64,000 nucleotides of DNA from Croceivirga sp. (GCA_028284285.1 JANQSA010000022.1:7741-71740), one strand, 5' to 3'; shown: positions 25,002 to 44,511, counted from the first letter of the stretch. The notes: generated from the letters alone by a model not told the origin. Made by a program: numbers and translations.

Positions 25002-25925
25002 TTACTTTCCTTCAGCACGGCTTTCCATGTTTGGAGTGGCCACGAACTTATCAATGACCGCTTTAATTTGGGAAACATCCGCATTAGCTTTTTCCAGGGG
25101 GTAGAAATGCATAAACAATGGCTTTTCTTCAACTTTTTTCAGTAGCGTCAAATCCCCTTCGCGATTGTACACGTCGTCCCAGGCACCGCGTACAGTAGCC
25201 CAAAAGTCACCATGATCTTTCCACCAATCTGCTGCTATTTTACATTTTTCCTTTTCAACACGGCTGTAGGTATTCCATCCTTTTTCCTGAACTAACAACA
25301 CATCTTCCTGTTCGTCTTCCCGGATGACCTTATCATTATCCTGCTCATGTACCCAACCGTAGGAGGTGATTTCCTGACGATTACCGCGCAACATTACATT
25401 GTAATCACTTCGCTTGGTATATTCTCTTCGGGGTAGCGGAGAATCTGTTTTATTCTCCCAATAGGATTTTCCATCAAAGTGTACCCAGGTTGCGGAACCG
25501 GAATACCGTGGGCTATCGTCTACCTGGTAGACCTTTTGGGTCCACTGCCCTTTAACGGCATCTTTCGGTAGTGTTTTAAACACCCAATTGTTGTCTTTGT
25601 TGTAATAAAACACCTTGTCATTTTCATAGAGCCAATCCTGTCTCCAGTGTTTCACCACCATGGTATCATTAACTACCAGTACATGCTGAATGGAAATCTT
25701 ATCCTCTGTATCTACAATAGGAATAGCCAGTTCCAGTGCCGCCGCTGTATAGTCCAATTTCTTTTCGTAATCAATTTCCGGGGCAAAGGTCTCTGTGTAT
25801 TTAAAAGTAATATCATAACATCCGCACATATCCAGAATGGCTTTGCGATCCATTTCCTTCTTGGTTTGCGCATTCATTCCAACTGCCATTAGTATACCCA
25901 AACCGGCTAAGACAAATTTTTTCAT
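25002..25925 (-). CDS. Hypothetical secreted protein (first gene of the operon divergent from the TonB receptor)
   Basis: 307-aa ORF with signal peptide, Trp/Tyr-rich, no recognised motif. Confidence 0.6.
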   Translation of the reverse strand: MKKFVLAGLGILMAVGMNAQTKKEMDRKAILDMCGCYDITFKYTETFAPEIDYEKKLDYTAAALELAIPIVDTEDKISIQHVLVVNDTMVVKHWRQDWLYENDKVFYYNKDNNWVFKTLPKDAVKGQWTQKVYQVDDSPRYSGSATWVHFDGKSYWENKTDSPLPRREYTKRSDYNVMLRGNRQEITSYGWVHEQDNDKVIREDEQEDVLLVQEKGWNTYSRVEKEKCKIAADWWKDHGDFWATVRGAWDDVYNREGDLTLLKKVEEKPLFMHFYPLEKANADVSQIKAVIDKFVATPNMESRAEGK

Positions 25926-25999
25926 GATGTAGTGTTTTGTACTTGTGGTTAAAAAAGAAATATTTTCTTGTTCTTATTTAGATTGATTTAAAATAAATA

Positions 26000-26007
26000 T
26001 ATATTTG
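26000..26007 (+). promoter_or_regulatory. Candidate -7 box (TAnnTTTG) for the TonB-dependent receptor
   Basis: tatatttg lies 20 nt upstream of the ATG at 26027. Confidence 0.35.
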
Positions 26008-26026
26008 CCCTCAAATGTAGTCAGGA

Positions 26027-28147
26027 ATGAGTCTAAATAAAAATAATTGTCTAATTATTTTTTCACTTTTTCTATGGGTAGCCCTAAGCGCTCAGAAAAA
26101 GCGGGAAAAGGACTCCATCCTTACTGAAAACTTAGGGGAAGTTGTGGTCACCGCTACCCGGACCGTTAGACAACTCTCCTCCCTACCCTTACCGGTTACC
26201 CTTATCCCGCAAAAACAAATTACCAACTCCGGGGTAACACGTTTGAATGAGATCTTAAGTGAGCAAACCGGAATTGTAGTAACCCCTGATATCACCACGG
26301 GTGGTGGGGAAGGGGTACAGATCCAGGGAATTGCTTCAGATTACATTATGGTACTTATAGATGGTGTGCCTGTAGTAGGGAGGAGTTCGGGAAATCTGGA
26401 TCTGAGTCGACTTGCTATTGGTAACATCCAGCAGGTAGAGGTGGTCAAGGGACCTTCGTCCGCTCTTTTTGGATCCGAAGCGCTAGGTGGTGTGATCAAC
26501 ATTATCACAGAACGCCCAAAAACCGAAAAGATCAGTGGGCAAATCACCCACCGTGCGGCTTCCTTTAACAACCAAAATACCACGGTAAGTGTGAATCAGC
26601 GGAAGGGAAAATTGGGGTACTCCCTTTTTATTGATCGATTAAGCACCGATGGTTTTGACCTGGCAGATGGAGATGAAGGGCAAACCGTTAATCCCTTTTT
26701 TAACTACACCTTTAACGGGCGGATGTATTATGATCTCTCGGATAAATTACAACTGTTTGCTTCCGGGCGCTATTTCCTCCAGGATTTTGATATCCCCTCC
26801 GGAACCAGCGAGGAACGGGATGGTAATGCGCAATTACGCATAGATCATAAACTTTCCGACAAATCTCAGTTTGAATACGAGTTCTACTACACCAATTATG
26901 TGACTAACGAACAAACCGTAGACCCCATTGAGAATGAAATTCTTCTGGACAACGATTTTGACCAGCAACTTTTCCGGCCCGAGGTACGTTTCAACCATTC
27001 CTTTACCCCCAATAGTACTTTAACGATGGGAGGGGGGTATAACTTTGAAAGCCTGGACCGTTCCCTTTTTGCAGACCAGGTCACCTTTGATTCCCAGTAT
27101 GTGTTTGCGCAATATGACTTCAGACCTATAAAAAAGCTCAATATCATAGTGGGTGCGCGTTTTGACAACCACAGTGTATACAACTCCCAATTGAGCCCGA
27201 AAATCTCGGCCCGTTACAATATTACCGAGCACTTAGCCGTAAAAGGTTCCGTAGGCAGCGGCTTTAAAGCTCCGGATTTCAGACAATTATTCCTGGATTT
27301 TACTAATGCCGCCGGGGGTAACTATTCCGTTTTTGGGAAAGAGGTAGAGGTTCAGGGAATAGAACGGTTAATTGCTAATGATGAAATTATTACAGATTCG
27401 GAAGGTAATCAAATATTACCGGTCCCCCTTTCTGAATTGGGCGAACCCCTGAACGCGGAAAGCTCTGTAGGATATAATCTGGGTGTGGGATATGACAAGG
27501 GAAAATTTAGGGGCGATATCAATTTCTTTCGAAACGATTTTACCGATCTGATCGACACCCGAATTTTAGCCACCAAAAGAAATGGTGCCAACGTCTTTGG
27601 CTATATCAACCGGGAAAGTGTCTACACCCAGGGCATGGAGGTAGACTTGCGTTATAAGATCCTGGACCAACTCACTTTATCGGCAGGCTATCAATTATTG
27701 TATGCTTTTGACAAAGACGTAGAAGAAGAGTTGGCGGAAAACGGTGCGTTTGCCCGGGATCCGGAAACATTGGAAACCATACGAATAAGCGAAGACGATT
27801 ACTTTGGACTGGAAAACCGTTCCCGGCATATCATCAATGCTAAACTGTTTTATGAAATCCCGAAATGGGGAGCCAATGCCAATCTACGTGTGATCTATCG
27901 AAGTAGATTTGGACTCACCGATAGAAATGGTAATAGCTTTCTGGATGAATTTGACAATTCCTTTATTGAGGGCTTCACCTTGATCAATCTTTCTTTTGGA
28001 AAGACTTTTTTCAAACATTACCAGGTGCAGGTGGGCGCTAACAATCTGTTGGATTTTACCGGCACCAACCCTTTTTCCGCACCGGAGAATCAAATTGCGG
28101 TGAATCCCGGGATACAAATTTTTGGACGATTAAACTTTCATTTTTAA
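26027..28147 (+). CDS. TonB-dependent outer-membrane receptor (HmuR-like context)
   Basis: Signal peptide, plug domain (VVVTATRT...VEVVKGPSSALFGSEALGGVINIIT), long beta-barrel, C-terminal aromatic ...NFHF. Confidence 0.9.
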   Translation: MSLNKNNCLIIFSLFLWVALSAQKKREKDSILTENLGEVVVTATRTVRQLSSLPLPVTLIPQKQITNSGVTRLNEILSEQTGIVVTPDITTGGGEGVQIQGIASDYIMVLIDGVPVVGRSSGNLDLSRLAIGNIQQVEVVKGPSSALFGSEALGGVINIITERPKTEKISGQITHRAASFNNQNTTVSVNQRKGKLGYSLFIDRLSTDGFDLADGDEGQTVNPFFNYTFNGRMYYDLSDKLQLFASGRYFLQDFDIPSGTSEERDGNAQLRIDHKLSDKSQFEYEFYYTNYVTNEQTVDPIENEILLDNDFDQQLFRPEVRFNHSFTPNSTLTMGGGYNFESLDRSLFADQVTFDSQYVFAQYDFRPIKKLNIIVGARFDNHSVYNSQLSPKISARYNITEHLAVKGSVGSGFKAPDFRQLFLDFTNAAGGNYSVFGKEVEVQGIERLIANDEIITDSEGNQILPVPLSELGEPLNAESSVGYNLGVGYDKGKFRGDINFFRNDFTDLIDTRILATKRNGANVFGYINRESVYTQGMEVDLRYKILDQLTLSAGYQLLYAFDKDVEEELAENGAFARDPETLETIRISEDDYFGLENRSRHIINAKLFYEIPKWGANANLRVIYRSRFGLTDRNGNSFLDEFDNSFIEGFTLINLSFGKTFFKHYQVQVGANNLLDFTGTNPFSAPENQIAVNPGIQIFGRLNFHF

Positions 28148-28166
28148 ACCATAAACAAAGATTCCT

Positions 28167-29045
28167 ATGAAGACAACTCTCAAACTATTTTCTCTGATAT
28201 TCATACTGTTTGCTTTTGTAGCCTGCAGCGATGACGACGAGGGACCCGTTGAATTTTCGGTAACGGCCATATCGCCTGAGTCCGGAACGGTTGGTACCGA
28301 AATCACTATTACCGGAACCGATTTTCCTTCAGATGCTGCTGAAGTAAACCTAACGTTTGGTGGGGTGAGCGCCACCATCACTTCAATATCCAGCACACAA
28401 ATTGTGACCACGGTTCCTGCAGGCGCTACTTCTGGTGAAGTACGTATTGCGGCGAATGGATTTACCAGCACTACCCCAACCACTTTTACCGTATTATCGG
28501 ACTTGGTACAGGCAAGGGCCAGCAATATTCCGGCGCCTACCACCGGAGGAGGGCAAGGAGCCCCGGACGAAGGACCTTTTACCAAGTTCAGTTTTGCCAC
28601 TGGTGCGGTGACCGATAGCGACACGGAATGGGATATTGCGTTTAGGGCAACCACTATTGCCATAAATGGAGGCGTGGCGACGGGTACCAATGATGAGCCG
28701 GAACGAAATGGCAATGGGGGCGTTGCACTTGTTAGGGATGTATTGTTTAGCGAAGTGACTACCGCAAATGGCCTTACGTATACCCAGGATGCGGATGGTG
28801 CTTTTGCCATTAACCCGGTAAGTGACCAAGGTTGGTACAATTATAATGGGGCACTCTTTCTTGTTTCTCCTATCCCAGGTACGGTATTGGTCTTTCGTAC
28901 CCACGACGGCAAGTATGCGAAAATAGAGATCCTAAGCTACTACAGGGATGCTCCGGAAGAGCCGAATGCCTTTGTTGATGAAGCGCGTTTGTATACCTTC
29001 AACTATATTTATAACCCTAATGAAGGGGAAACCAGTTTGGAGTAG
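28167..29045 (+). CDS. Lipoprotein with IPT/TIG domain fused to an HmuY-like domain
   Basis: Lipobox FVACS. IPT-like region ISPESGTVGTEITITGTDF...IVTTVPAGATSGEVRI. Then WDIAFRATTIAINGG...GWYNY...YAKIEILSYY, typical of HmuY-family proteins. Confidence 0.7.
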   Translation: MKTTLKLFSLIFILFAFVACSDDDEGPVEFSVTAISPESGTVGTEITITGTDFPSDAAEVNLTFGGVSATITSISSTQIVTTVPAGATSGEVRIAANGFTSTTPTTFTVLSDLVQARASNIPAPTTGGGQGAPDEGPFTKFSFATGAVTDSDTEWDIAFRATTIAINGGVATGTNDEPERNGNGGVALVRDVLFSEVTTANGLTYTQDADGAFAINPVSDQGWYNYNGALFLVSPIPGTVLVFRTHDGKYAKIEILSYYRDAPEEPNAFVDEARLYTFNYIYNPNEGETSLE

Positions 29046-29062
29046 CCATGAACCAGGTGCTT

Positions 29063-29113
29063 TTGTCATTCCGCACCTGTCTAACGACAGGCGGGCGGGC
29101 GCAGGAATGACAA
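29063..29113. repeat. REP-like palindromic element
   Basis: ttgtcattcc ... ggaatgacaa terminal inverted repeat, enclosing an inner cctgtc/gacagg stem and a GC-rich core. Confidence 0.6.
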
Positions 29114-29158
29114 ATTAAGGCAAAAGCAATACCCAGATTTGAACACATTATTTAGTAT

Positions 29159-29605
29159 ATGAAAGCGATTAACATTTTGTTCATCATTTTGCGCCTTTTT
29201 TTAGGAGGGATGATGATATACGGAGGATTCCAAAAATTCCAAAAGCCCATTCCTACGCCCATAGAAGTGGTGGAAAAAGCAGAAAAGTTTAAAGACCCGG
29301 GTAAGGAAAGTACCCTGCAAAAGATCCTGTATATCAGCGGGAGCAAGCAGACCGGGTATTTCTGGCAGTTACTGGGGATCGGCGAGATCCTGTTTGGGCT
29401 ACTGGTGCTACTCCAGTTTACCAGCTTTGTGGGTGCTATTTTTCTGCTGCCCATTACGCTTAATATCTTTTTATTCCATGTGTTCCTGGAAGCGGATGAA
29501 ATGCCGGAACTGTTACAAACAGGGGCCTTATTCTTTATTAATATCGCCTTGGTGGTAAAAGAACGGGAAAAATGGCAGACGCTGCTTTGGATAAAACCGA
29601 TTTAG
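29159..29605 (+). CDS. DoxX-like small membrane protein
   Basis: 148 aa with 4 TM segments. The N-terminal LRLFLGGMMIYGGFQKF pattern resembles the DoxX family. Confidence 0.6.
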   Translation: MKAINILFIILRLFLGGMMIYGGFQKFQKPIPTPIEVVEKAEKFKDPGKESTLQKILYISGSKQTGYFWQLLGIGEILFGLLVLLQFTSFVGAIFLLPITLNIFLFHVFLEADEMPELLQTGALFFINIALVVKEREKWQTLLWIKPI

Positions 29606-29635
29606 TTTTCAGGTTACGTTTGAGTTAGTGTATTC

Positions 29636-29664
29636 AAAAACCGGGGGTAACCTCCGGTTTTTTT
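29636..29664 (+). terminator. Rho-independent terminator after the DoxX-like gene
   Basis: aaaaa-ccggggg-taa-cctccgg-ttttttt: a 7-bp stem (one G-U pair) with an A/T extension and T7 tail. Confidence 0.75.
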
Positions 29665-29834
29665 ATGTCAACAAGGTTAACATGACATCTTTGGAGTAAT
29701 TTCTTAGGTCGTTTTTACAGGAAATCCCCAGTTTTTTTACGGGTTTTCTGTAGTGTTCTTTGGTTGTTGTCCATTATATTGGAAGACTGACTTATCCCCC
29801 AAAAAACCTATTTCAGAAAAAGAGATTATGGTTT

Positions 29835-29842
29835 TATGTTTG
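29835..29842 (+). promoter_or_regulatory. Candidate -7 box (TAnnTTTG) for the Abi-like gene
   Basis: tatgtttg lies 31 nt upstream of the ATG at 29873. Confidence 0.35.
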
Positions 29843-29872
29843 AAGTTTCTACATGTTAAACCCTAACACCAA

Positions 29873-31036
29873 ATGACAAAAGCGATAGAAAAGATAGCTT
29901 GGGCATTTCTACTGCTTGGTATGGTCATTCTTTCCTATCTGCTTATAAAATCTTCAGTTGATGGATTTAGTATTTCAATAAAAAAAGATACCAATTATGA
30001 GGTAACTGGACAATTTGGAGACTTTGTTGGCGGTGTAATTGGAACCTTTTTCGCCCTGGCAGGAACTTTACTCATCTATCTATCTTTTAGAGAACAAAGC
30101 AACGAAAACAAACGAAACGCATTCGAGTCTTCTTTTTTTGAAATGATGAAGATTTACAGAGATAACGTTAACGAATTAAGGTACAGAAAATACAAGGACA
30201 AAGACCATATTATCTATGAGAACAGACAGGTAATTAGAGAGATTTTTGCAGAATTCATTGAATGCTACAGAGAAGTAAGAAAGTTTTCTAACTCAAAAAA
30301 GGTAGAAGATTATCTAACGCCAAGATACGCTGACAAACTAAAAAAAATAAAGGAAAAAATAAACCCTAAGATAAATCTCATCGAGCTAGCAAGAATTGAT
30401 ATAGCATATTCAATAGTTTTCTACGGTATAGGAGTTGAAGGAGAGTCAATAATCCGAAAAAATATTCAAAAAAAGTACAATCGTTACTATTACTACAAAC
30501 TCTTATACTTTATAAAATTAAAACCAAAAAAATCTAATCAAAGTAGGTATTTTTTGTGGCAACAGGCGCGAAATATGAACCTTGAGGATTTGCATAGATT
30601 GGTCGATGAACTTTATGAGAACAGAAAGAATCCAAGAAAGACGGATCATCTTTCTGAGCTGGCTAAAAGTTTTAAAATGCATTTAAAATATGAAAAGTAT
30701 TACGGTGGTCATCAGTTTAGGCTTGGTCATTATTTCAGACATTTATACCAAAGTTACAAATACTTAAACGATCATAAGGATTTAACTCAGGATGAAAAAT
30801 ATGCATATGGAAAGTTATATCGTGCACAACTATCAACTTATGAACAAGCTATACTCTTCATAAATAGTATATCCACCATTGGAATGAAATGGGAGTTTAC
30901 ACCAGAAAAATTAAACTCACCTTTAATAACTACTTATAACTTAATCAAAAATTTACCGGGAGAGCATCTTTATGGAATACGGTACAAAACTTATTATAAA
31001 GGCGTTGACTATGAAACAGATGAATTACTGAAATGA
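29873..31036 (+). CDS. Putative phage abortive-infection membrane protein (putAbiC-like)
   Basis: Two N-terminal TM helices, the second preceded by GQFGDFVGGVIGTFFALAGTLLIYLSFREQ. From memory this matches the family annotated 'putative phage abortive infection protein'. Lys/Tyr-rich soluble C-terminal domain; very AT-rich gene. Confidence 0.6.
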   Translation: MTKAIEKIAWAFLLLGMVILSYLLIKSSVDGFSISIKKDTNYEVTGQFGDFVGGVIGTFFALAGTLLIYLSFREQSNENKRNAFESSFFEMMKIYRDNVNELRYRKYKDKDHIIYENRQVIREIFAEFIECYREVRKFSNSKKVEDYLTPRYADKLKKIKEKINPKINLIELARIDIAYSIVFYGIGVEGESIIRKNIQKKYNRYYYYKLLYFIKLKPKKSNQSRYFLWQQARNMNLEDLHRLVDELYENRKNPRKTDHLSELAKSFKMHLKYEKYYGGHQFRLGHYFRHLYQSYKYLNDHKDLTQDEKYAYGKLYRAQLSTYEQAILFINSISTIGMKWEFTPEKLNSPLITTYNLIKNLPGEHLYGIRYKTYYKGVDYETDELLK

Positions 31037-31181
31037 AACTAGTGCTGACAATGATCACGATAAATTGTGGTTTGAACAGAGCTCTTGCCATTACTATGAG
31101 TTCTTAGCCGATTTCTAAATGCAATGATTCTTTAGGTAATTATGTAAATATAGCTGAGATTTTAAAAGATAAATTTAAAGT

Positions 31182-32258
31182 ATGGATCAAATCAATATAG
31201 AACAACCATTACTATTCAACTTCGATGACGAAACTGAAAATGAGAACATCGATTTCAGATACGTAATAACGAGTTATGGTGCCGATTATCCAGTCGATAG
31301 CCTAATGAAAAGAATAAAGGACAAAGTCGTTTTTATCCCTCCATTCCAAAGGCAATTTGTATGGAACATTAACGAAGCATCCAAATTCATTGAATCATTG
31401 ATCTTGGGGTTGCCTGTGCCGGGAATTTTTTTATCAAAAGAAAAAGACACCAATAGATTACTTGTGGTAGATGGACAACAAAGGCTAATGAGTTTGTACT
31501 TTTTTTATACCGGTTATTTCCAAAACACTCCCTTTAAATTACAGAATGTACAAGAGGATTTATTAGGAAGAACTTATAGCACATTAAAATCCCCTGACAG
31601 AATACGATTAGATGATTCCATAATACACGCAACTATTGTAAGGCAAGACGAACCTGATAAAGATGAAAGCAGTATATATCAAATTTTTGAGAGGCTAAAC
31701 TCTGGTGGAAGAGATTTAAAACCTCAAGAGATCAGGGCTTGTATATATTATGGAGAATTTAATGAATTACTAAATGATTTAGTAAAACTCCCCTCTTGGA
31801 GAGCTATTTTCGGAAAAAAGTCCGATATAAGACTAAAAGAGCAAGAGTTGATTTTAAGATTCCTCTCTTTACTGTATGGCAGACAGGAATACAAAAAACC
31901 TCTAAAAGGGTTTCTGAATTCTTTTATGGCGCAACATCAACACCTAAAAGGTATTGGTGGGGAGGAGTTTGCCGAAACATTCAAAAGTACATTCGATTTC
32001 ATAGTTAGAACCATCGGCACAAAACCATTTAGGATAAGAAGGAATTTAAATCTTGGAGCATTTGATTCAATATCCATAGCAGTTGCCGAGAGATTAAAGT
32101 CGGGAGTAATTCAAAATCGTAAGAAATTTGTTGAAAAGTATAATGATTTAGTTGATAATTCAGAGTTTATTTCTATTGTTCAAGGGGGGACATCTGACGA
32201 AAAAAATGTTGAAGCCCGTATTGGCTTGGCAATTGAGGCTTTTAAAGAAGTTGAATAA
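31182..32258 (+). CDS. Stand-alone DUF262 (ParB/Srx-like, GmrSD N-terminal type) protein, no fused nuclease domain
   Basis: IPPFQRQFVW (aa 52-61), VVDGQQRL (aa 95-102) and IFERLNSGGRDL are DUF262 hallmarks. I see no DUF1524/HNH-type His motif in the C-terminal half. Confidence 0.85.
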   Translation: MDQINIEQPLLFNFDDETENENIDFRYVITSYGADYPVDSLMKRIKDKVVFIPPFQRQFVWNINEASKFIESLILGLPVPGIFLSKEKDTNRLLVVDGQQRLMSLYFFYTGYFQNTPFKLQNVQEDLLGRTYSTLKSPDRIRLDDSIIHATIVRQDEPDKDESSIYQIFERLNSGGRDLKPQEIRACIYYGEFNELLNDLVKLPSWRAIFGKKSDIRLKEQELILRFLSLLYGRQEYKKPLKGFLNSFMAQHQHLKGIGGEEFAETFKSTFDFIVRTIGTKPFRIRRNLNLGAFDSISIAVAERLKSGVIQNRKKFVEKYNDLVDNSEFISIVQGGTSDEKNVEARIGLAIEAFKEVE

Positions 32259-32722
32259 TGGGTCTCTATAAGTTAAAAATTTATGAGAGACAGTTAGATA
32301 ATCTCTTTGCAGAAGTTTCACATGTACAAGAAGGTGAAATAAACAAAGCTCACCTCACTCGTTATTTATGTGTTAGAACTTCTGGTTACCTTGAAAATGT
32401 TACTAGAATTCTCATTGCTAATTTTTGCGATGGTACTTCTCCACAACCTATAAATAACTACATTGTTAAAAGAACAAAATATATGTCGAATTTAGATTAC
32501 AAAAGATTAAAAGGTCTGCTTTCGGAATTCGATTTAAGATGGAGTTCAGATTTTGAAAATAAGATAACGGATCAGCAAAAAAGCTCTCTTAACTCGGTCA
32601 TCTCGAATCGAAATAATATTGCACATGGGAATCAAGATAGTATTACTTACCGTGATATGGTAAACTACTATCGCGACATAAAGGACGTTTGTAATATTCT
32701 AGTCGATATAATTAAGAAATAA
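32258..32722 (+). CDS. Small HEPN-like protein (Rx4H motif), coupled to the DUF262 gene
   Basis: Its ATG at 32258 shares one nt with the DUF262 TAA (TAATG). Predicted all-alpha, 154 aa. SNRNNIAHGN gives R118-x4-H123 near the C-terminus, where HEPN motifs usually sit. Confidence 0.6.
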   Translation: MGLYKLKIYERQLDNLFAEVSHVQEGEINKAHLTRYLCVRTSGYLENVTRILIANFCDGTSPQPINNYIVKRTKYMSNLDYKRLKGLLSEFDLRWSSDFENKITDQQKSSLNSVISNRNNIAHGNQDSITYRDMVNYYRDIKDVCNILVDIIKK

Positions 32723-32803
32723 GATTTGGGCACTTCAAATTGAATCCAAATCTCCTCAACCTCGCTGCGCGAAATTGGCAACTTCGCGCTTAACCCGGTA
32801 AAT

Positions 32804-32925
32804 GAGATTTCTCCCGCCAGAGGCGGGCAGGCGGTCGTTTCGCTTCCTCGAAATGACTAAGAGTCTCCATAATTAGCTTTTACTATCAAAAGTCATTTCA
32901 CACCACCAGAGGCAGGTAATTTTAC
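32804..32925. repeat. Dispersed palindromic repeat family, cluster 1 (one full plus one partial inverted copy)
   Basis: gagatttctcccgccagaggcgggcaggcggtcgtttcgcttcctcgaaatgac (32804-32857), then an inverted partial copy starting gtcatttca at 32892. Confidence 0.7.
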
Positions 32926-36815: not shown

Positions 36816-37171
36816 GAGATTTCCCGGTCGCTTTGCTTCCTCGAAATAACTATTGTGAATTAATTTGTACCCCCAGAGTCATTTCGAACCCGCTAAAGAC
36901 GGGCAAGCCGGATATTGCGGTGCAATAAGAGCGTGAGAAATCTCATCTTTTCAACGGCGTAATTATTCTAGAAATAGATTTCTCCCACCGGAGGAGGGCA
37001 AGCAGTCGCTTCGCTTCTTCGAAATGACTAAAAGTTTTCGTATTATGATCCTCTCTAAAGTCATTTCGAACCGAATGTAATGAGTGTGAGAAATCTCAAT
37101 AACCTGAGATGAGATTTCTCCCGCCATAGTCGGACTGGCAATCGTCGTTCCGCTCCGTATGATGAAATGAC
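36816..37171. repeat. Dispersed palindromic repeat family, cluster 2 (5 copies in alternating orientation)
   Basis: Units are bounded by GAGATTTCTC...TCGAAATGAC or the reverse complement: 36816-36850 (degenerate), 36878-36944 (inverted), 36976-37028, 37060-37097 (inverted), 37111-37171 (degenerate). Confidence 0.75.
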
Positions 37172-37383
37172 GTTAGGACTACCTCCAACCTTTTTTTAGA
37201 AATTATGTAGTTTAGGGCGTGTTTACGTAGACTTTCAGACTTCTGGTTCTTTGTGTTGCCCATGCCTCCGGAGAAAGGCTTCCACCGAGGTTGAGTTCTA
37301 CCTCAAATTCTTTCTATGCTTCCGAAGTACGGGTTTATTATTCTTTTTTACCAATTCCCTAAGTAGTAAAAAATTCTAAAGCT

Positions 37384-44232: not shown

Positions 44233-44511
44233 AGTCCTATCGAACCCACCAGAGTCGGATAAATTTACCTGCCGTAGGCAGAGAACATGAGAAATCTAAT
44301 GCTATACACTACAATCATTCGGGAATAGATTTCTCCCACCGGAGGACGGCAAGCAGTCGCTTCGCTTCTTCGAAATGACTAATAGATGTTGGTTCGTGCT
44401 TTCGCAGTCATTTCGAACCGAATGTAATGAGTGTGAGAAATCTCAATACCCTGAGATGAGATTTCTCAATCGTCTCCCGATAACTATCGGGATTCCTCAT
44501 GTCGAAATGAC
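44233..44511. repeat. Dispersed palindromic repeat family, cluster 3 (4 copies, alternating orientation)
   Basis: Copies at 44233-44298 (inverted, degenerate), 44327-44379, 44407-44444 (inverted) and 44458-44511 (degenerate). 44327-44379 and 44407-44467 are near-identical to 36976-37028 and 37060-37120. Confidence 0.75.

Follow-up and report, generated by a model that had tools for sequence, protein, structure and literature searches.

What does a DUF262 protein that carries no nuclease domain do when a small HEPN protein is encoded directly behind it? The question is raised by a gene pair at positions 31182-32722 of a 64,000-nt stretch of Croceivirga sp. DNA (GCA_028284285.1, JANQSA010000022.1:7741-71740), which at its full length is referred to here as the window. 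An initial annotation of the pair had proposed that the upstream protein (A), a sensor and NTPase, controls the downstream protein (B), an RNase, in trans, and had implied that this arrangement was novel and had seen no experimental work. The first of these proposals is taken further below; the second does not hold, since the same architecture has already been validated against phage as the system PD-T4-2 (PMC9519451) and is covered by reviews and PADLOC models. With a probability of about 0.7, we read the locus as a two-gene anti-phage cassette of the PD-T4-2 type in which A would act as the sensor and B as the RNase.

Layout of the gene pair

The two genes and the motifs on which the argument depends are the following, in window coordinates.

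31182-32258, plus strand: gene A, a DUF262 / ParB-Srx-fold protein of 358 aa (open reading frame (ORF) call)
32258-32722, plus strand: gene B, a stand-alone HEPN protein of 154 aa (ORF call)
32256-32260, plus strand: TAATG stop/start overlap of A and B (TAA 32256-32258, ATG 32258-32260)
31344-31364, plus strand: motif I of A, QRxxxW within FQRQFVW, residues 55-61
31470-31484, plus strand: motif II of A, DGQQR, residues 97-101, the predicted nucleotide-phosphate binding centre
31686-31700, plus strand: motif III of A, FxxxN in the form FERLN, residues 169-173
32609-32626, plus strand: catalytic HEPN motif of B, R118-N-N-I-A-H123 (Rx4H), encoded by cga aat aat att gca cat

Stop and start codon share a single base at the A/B junction, as read from the sequence, and the pair spans 1541 nt. 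Sizes, positions and the TAATG overlap are as the initial annotation had given them, and FQRQFVW, DGQQR and FERLNSGGRDL (residues 169-179 of A, nt 31686-31718) as well as R118-NNIA-H123 in B were all located where it had placed them. Homologue searches returned many full-length relatives of A and many of B; together with the invariant motif residues described below, this comparison confirms both as genuine genes rather than chance ORFs. A promoter scan with a sigma-70 consensus found fewer sites than in shuffled sequence, the Bacteroidota-type host probably using another consensus, and a scan for terminator-like structures gave no clear excess; both scans were uninformative.

Relation to PD-T4-2

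Comparative genomics had listed "RiboL-PSP-HEPN, operon with ParB" (Anantharaman et al. 2013, Table 1; PMC3710099), and the initial annotation was correct in pointing to such operons. PD-T4-2 was described from E. coli ECOR65 by Vassallo et al. 2022 (PMC9519451) as "DUF262, HEPN" (Table S1), a two-ORF span of 1540 nt whose second ORF is unannotated (Table S2), with HHpred matches of A to DUF262 and of B to HEPN_RiboL-PSP (97.8%) and then HEPN_MAE_28990 (96.9%; Table S3). Its deletion in ECOR65 restored plaquing by T4, and it functions as a two-gene clone (PMC9519451). A review places PD-T4-2 under both DUF262 and PF18735, and the study of the Menshen system counts it among the DUF262-centred systems, largely uncharacterised.

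By sequence comparison, the window locus is a divergent relative of PD-T4-2, and its architecture is one already known and validated. Both consist of a two-gene operon in which a DUF262 protein of ~350 aa without DUF1524 is directly followed by a HEPN protein of ~150-170 aa; in both, RiboL-PSP and then MAE_28990 are the top Pfam families of the HEPN gene; and their lengths are 1540 nt (prototype) and 1541 nt (window). The window pair differs in belonging to a Bacteroidota-type clade, its A being ~35% and its B 22-28% identical to the E. coli pairs compared, and in the canonical DGQQR of its A protein, which in the E. coli copies (loci L020 and L024) is replaced by DGYQR or DGFQR. In place of the ECOR65 prototype (QOYX01000002 338334-339873), the P2-prophage pair of E. 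coli TW11681 was aligned. Window A is 36% identical to the prophage A over 345 aa (E 1e-67) and window B 28% identical to the prophage B (L024; E 5e-12), while an E. coli plasmid copy of B was matched at E 1e-5 (tblastn, 7.3 Gb). In profile-profile alignment with hhalign, the B clade matched the E. coli HEPN partners at 99.1% (E 1.6e-18).

Conservation of the pair

A scan with a B profile, with one genome per species, returned 19 loci from taxa that include Bacteroidota, Chloroflexota, Dehalococcoidia, a metagenome-assembled genome (MAG) of Peribacteria (candidate phyla radiation, CPR) and a MAG labelled archaeon. In 18 of these, the gene just before B, in the same orientation, encodes an A homologue; the 19th ends at a contig edge (18/18 testable). 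An independent look-up of three A homologues (54-58% identity) found a 152-aa RiboL-PSP HEPN gene directly downstream of each, and an A-type gene, whole or as a fragment, precedes each of the three distant B representatives that were inspected. That the two genes belong together, as the initial annotation supposed, is thereby borne out: the DUF262 gene directly precedes the HEPN gene in every related locus with readable upstream sequence.

The junction and the motifs were compared in a table of 26 rows, comprising 25 fetched loci and the window. The distance between A and B is between -4 and +6 nt in 21 of the 26 rows, and bigger apparent overlaps reflect the choice of the longest-ORF start; the TAATG junction recurs in L001-L006, L016 and L025, and most other loci have ATGA or spacers of 2-6 nt. 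All 24 rows from outside E. coli have a DUF262 protein with DGQQR, and all 25 full-length B ORFs have R[NH]x[IF][AS]H. Over 22 loci, the pairwise identities of A and B are correlated at r = 0.95, a value reached by none of 2000 Mantel permutations, and B evolves faster than A (mean identity 38% vs 50%). Conserved, tightly coupled and inherited together, A and B make up a two-gene cassette whose members co-diverge. An exhaustive hidden Markov model (HMM) search returned 1,984 B-like clusters at 50% identity (E <= 1e-3), nearly all of them stand-alone proteins of ~150-160 aa; a scan of viral contigs with the B profile gave one weak locus only.

Two loci depart from the common pattern. In a Zunongwangia MAG (L002, 6001-6252) the HEPN ORF is shortened to 83 aa next to an intact DUF262 gene, which may point to a pseudogene or to faulty assembly. 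In the P2-like coliphage Peduovirus P2_4B2 (L032, 140-2015) the gene after DUF262 encodes a HEPN protein of 239 aa whose best family is MAE_28990 (E 7.6e-18) rather than RiboL-PSP; it thus appears that either HEPN family can serve behind one and the same DUF262 sensor.

Predicted functions of A and B

The only Pfam domain of A is GmrSD_N/DUF262 (PF03235; residues 40-189, E 1.5e-28), and it carries the three motifs that define DUF262 in the literature, QRxxxW, DGxQR and FxxxN (PMC12065111). Among 32 A homologues, Q56, R57, W61, D97-R101, F169 and N173 are invariant. An AlphaFold2 model of A (mean predicted local distance difference test (pLDDT) score 82.8) starts with a disordered stretch (residues 1-28), continues with an alpha/beta domain and is all-helical in its C-terminal half (residues ~190-358), and its top Foldseek matches are BrxU, CTP/CDP-bound ParB, SspE, Noc, KorB and sulfiredoxin (Srx); the sequence profile of A also reaches BrxU in the PDB at 4e-5. 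No DUF1524 or other His-Me nuclease domain was found in A by Pfam, and no DUF1524 nuclease is fused to or near A according to Pfam on A, the model and the flanking proteins. The initial annotation was right to describe A as a DUF262 protein that stands alone, with no DNase fused to it. In the type IV restriction enzymes GmrSD, BrxU and SspE, DUF262 is an NTP (nucleoside triphosphate)-driven DNA sensor (PMC10952713, PMC12065111). These proteins share with A the N-terminal ParB/Srx-fold NTP-binding module with DGQQR, followed by a helical middle domain, and BrxU and SspE are its best structural matches; they differ in using a DUF1524 His-Me DNase, whereas the effector of the window pair is a separate, predicted RNase. 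By analogy, A is a predicted DNA- and NTP-binding sensor that has no nuclease domain.

Residues 1-28 of A, within the stretch encoded at 31182-31298 (residues 1-39), are predicted to be disordered (pLDDT <50). E21, R26 and Y27 in this part are nonetheless invariant across the 32 homologues, and the run goes on with I29-Y32, D35, Y36 and D39. The conserved N-terminal stretch may be an interaction motif.

Protein B scores above the Pfam gathering thresholds for both of the HEPN families that the initial annotation had named, HEPN_RiboL-PSP (74.9 bits, gathering 28.4; E 1.1e-20) and HEPN_MAE_28990 (31.7 bits, gathering 26.8; E 2.2e-7), and these are also its best families, which bears out its placement in the HEPN clan. 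R118, N119, H123, G124 and N125 are invariant among 21 diverse B homologues. The AlphaFold2 model of B, a confident one (pLDDT 89.8), is all-helical with seven helices, and its top Foldseek matches are mostly HEPN proteins (AF_0298, HepT toxins, 4nqf, Csm6), with a best E of 0.039 and template modelling (TM) scores of ~0.45-0.6. A PDB sequence search with the B profile gave nothing meaningful, the top match being LotA (E 0.27). Because the Foldseek statistics are weak, the HEPN call depends chiefly on the sequence profile, which is strong, and on the motif; from these, B is a predicted metal-independent RNase effector.

With the HEPN RNases of other defence systems (HepT-MntA toxins, ApeA, DARNA/PD-T7-3, Csm6), B has in common the Rx4H motif in a predicted helical domain, a role as abortive-infection effector if the prediction is right, and an activity that probably requires dimerisation; the motif of DARNA, R117x4H122, lies at nearly the same positions as R118-x4-H123 of B. 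The regulator sets the window pair apart, being a separately encoded ParB-like protein and not an MNT AMPylase, a fused C-terminal domain sensing single-stranded DNA, or CARF. No MNT or nucleotidyltransferase (NTase) domain was found in the three proteins of the surrounding islet or in the ten flanking proteins scanned.

Proposed mechanism

It is plausible, by analogy with the systems above, that the DUF262 protein is an NTP-dependent sensor controlling the HEPN RNase in trans, a reasonable reading that agrees with proposals in the literature. Translational coupling would yield A and B in fixed proportion, and a complex of the two would keep the RNase inactive. A would then read an infection cue on DNA, most likely the state of DNA modification or the presence of foreign DNA, in the manner of the DUF262 domains of GmrSD, BrxU and SspE. 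NTP binding and hydrolysis could drive a conformational switch in A by which an active HEPN dimer is freed or assembled. The RNase would cleave cellular RNA, phage RNA or both (tRNA or mRNA) and so stop phage production, with abortive infection or growth arrest as the probable outcome.

Some relatives have an N-terminal MTaX1 domain (PF20296, "methylase-associated") fused to DUF262, lie directly after one or two C5-cytosine methylase genes, or both.

L026 2686-7061, L027, L022 4485-6538 and L031 1345-4155: MTaX1-fused or methylase-linked relatives, including one in Akkermansia phage Chambord

The make-up of these relatives suggests that A reads the state of DNA modification. In a more specific form, which we put forward tentatively and would not rate as an even chance, DUF262 would read DNA modification in a type IV-like manner in the stand-alone pairs and with self-marking as in restriction-modification in the methylase-linked variants, and an NTP-driven, ParB-like switch would release the HEPN RNase in trans.

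Genomic setting and mobility

The pair shares a small region of low GC content with one further gene.

29600-32750, no strand assigned: low-GC islet with an AbiC-like gene and the pair, 30-35% GC vs 43-50% in the flanks
29873-31036, plus strand: AbiC-like gene, 387 aa (Pfam putAbiC PF16872, E 3.4e-18, residues 280-364; phrog_8999)

This islet of ~3 kb was likely acquired horizontally, and a defence-island setting, considered in the initial annotation, is supported to the extent of a small islet with an AbiC-like neighbour (Pfam, GC profile). The AbiC-like protein has no PADLOC match, and NCBIfam gave no match for it, for A or for B; by eye, it has two hydrophobic N-terminal stretches resembling membrane helices. 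Searches for att-like or transposon-end direct or inverted repeats flanking the islet found none.

Relatives of the pair occur on a variety of mobile elements: on 3.9-kb E. coli plasmids, of which the pair makes up ~43%; on larger E. coli plasmids, beside pemIK; in a lambdoid prophage; in a P2-like prophage, flanked by the CI repressor and integrase genes; on a Hymenobacter plasmid, beside a recombinase; and in Akkermansia phage Chambord and a P2-like coliphage. Among 24 related loci, none of the flanking genes of the window recurs, and the pair therefore moves as a unit.

Weighing of alternative explanations

Several observations weigh against assigning the locus to PD-T4-2. The PADLOC model PD-T4-2_B does not match window B at E <= 1, and automated tools would therefore not call this locus. 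The model is narrow: E. coli HEPN partners, all of them clear RiboL-PSP HEPN proteins in Pfam, score 1.3e-8 (the P2-prophage copy, L024), 2e-4, 4e-4 or nothing. Window A scores higher on NsnA, the broader model of the Menshen system (2.1e-68, residues 28-357, near full length), than on PD-T4-2_A (2.2e-59, profile positions 49-362 of 363). For each of four E. coli A proteins, NsnA likewise outscores PD-T4-2_A; the two models therefore cannot tell the systems apart, and the assignment turns on the partner genes. The 1540-nt ECOR65 prototype was not found in 5,426 E. coli genomes by distant DNA searches with plasmid and prophage seeds, which yielded four other variants. The locus is therefore filed as a divergent locus of the PD-T4-2 kind with the failure of the PADLOC B model on record. 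To these points are added the weak statistics of the structural support for the HEPN fold, and the scope of the experiments: phage resistance has been shown for the E. coli prototype only; no mechanistic study of PD-T4-2 was found in the literature from 2023 onward; and the literature search found no experiment on A-B binding, NTPase activity, RNA cleavage or the sensed cue for any member. A full-text search also found no paper combining RiboL-PSP with DUF262.

Menshen (NsnA-NsnB-NsnC; Millman 2022, Li et al. 2025) is a further close system through the A protein, which is homologous over its full length to NsnA (ParB-DUF262 and ParBDB) and has the helical C-terminal domain in common with it, and its proposed model is also one of a DUF262 DNA sensor driving a nuclease effector, with an RNase-fold (BECR) domain in the archetype. 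Menshen has, however, an ABC-ATPase transducer (NsnB) and an inPIN-effector protein (NsnC) where the window has a single HEPN gene. Neither NsnB (ABC/AAA_15 ATPase and DUF3696) nor NsnC (inPIN and effector) adjoins the pair, and there is no ATPase within ~5 kb on either side; membership in Menshen was rejected on the absence of the NsnB and NsnC genes from the flanks.

The pair could also be mainly a toxin-antitoxin or addiction module, with B as a HEPN RNase toxin and A as its protein antitoxin, that stabilises mobile elements and does not sense phage. There are well-known HEPN toxins that have a protein partner. The best fold matches of B include HepT-MntA structures, the share of the pair in the small E. 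coli plasmids and its position beside pemIK on larger ones would suit such a role, and translational coupling and co-divergence fit it as well. We nevertheless regard it as unlikely: the validated member protects its native host against T4 (PMC9519451), and A, a 358-aa ParB-like protein with three motifs and homology to defence sensors, is far beyond the size needed for simple neutralisation. The toxin gene would, moreover, lie downstream of a much larger partner, and there is no MNT-type modifier. Toxin-antitoxin behaviour and defence are not mutually exclusive. It is quite improbable that A itself is an effector that attacks DNA, as a ParB-like nuclease or nickase directed at modified or foreign DNA, with B as an auxiliary or second effector in a joint attack on DNA and RNA. 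The methylase-linked variants do resemble restriction-modification systems, yet in GmrSD, BrxU and SspE it is DUF1524 that cleaves DNA, with DUF262 as NTPase and sensor (PMC10952713, PMC12065111); A has no recognisable nuclease domain, and the invariant Rx4H argues for B as the catalytic effector. That the AbiC-like membrane protein, A and B constitute a three-gene system is very improbable, even if all three genes lie on one strand in one low-GC islet, with a 145-nt gap between the AbiC-like gene and A, and an AbiC-like ORF is found near the pair in Pedobacter as well (L008, 6900-7385). In that locus it lies downstream and not upstream; it is absent from the 23 others of the 24 loci; the 145-nt spacer compares with an overlap of 1 nt between A and B; and PD-T4-2 functions with two genes cloned. 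The three-gene unit was rejected on the lack of conservation of the AbiC-like gene beside the pair, and the sequence comparison leaves it a separate, putative abortive-infection gene that is not a conserved part of the cassette.

Significance

The defence function of PD-T4-2 has been validated, and its mechanism is unsolved. The two-gene logic reaches far outside Proteobacteria: it is found in Bacteroidota and Chloroflexota, in a MAG of Peribacteria (CPR) and in an archaeal one, and it is carried by phages and plasmids. Divergence of the HEPN partner is so rapid that the current PADLOC models miss it. If a modification sensor does act on a HEPN RNase, this would be the first demonstration of a DNA sensor of the restriction type coupled to an abortive effector that degrades RNA; the family would also be much larger (~2,000 clusters at 50% identity) and more varied than defence-finder models suggest, with a clade that the PADLOC B model misses. 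The clade that keeps the canonical DGQQR could lend itself to cleaner biochemistry than the E. coli copies, and the methylase-linked variants offer a route to the unsolved trigger. The practical value lies in better profiles for defence annotation and in a shortlist of mutants; no new kind of system is revealed.

Other features of the window

The genes flanking the islet are ordinary. An AraC regulator, an ORF without Pfam match and a peroxiredoxin are among those downstream of the pair, and the flanks further encode a TonB receptor, DoxX, HxlR and proteins of the TIG/HmuY-domain, flavodoxin-like and NmrA-family types. Neither tRNA genes nor Rfam families were found in the window. Upstream of the islet, at 25002-29605, DUF6607, the TonB-dependent receptor, the TIG/HmuY-domain protein and DoxX form what is likely a haem-uptake cluster, which ends in a clean hairpin with a T-run at 29636-29668. 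An intergenic repeat family, GAGATTTCTCCCGCC ... TCGCTTCCTCGAAATGAC, is present in five copies at <=2 mismatches, where 0.17 would be expected by chance.

32804-32860, 36930-36944 (minus strand), 36975-37030, 37111-37125 and 44326-44340: copies of the repeat family, one of them at the right edge of the islet

The small ORFs called at 36963-37263 translate through these intergenic repeats and are spurious.

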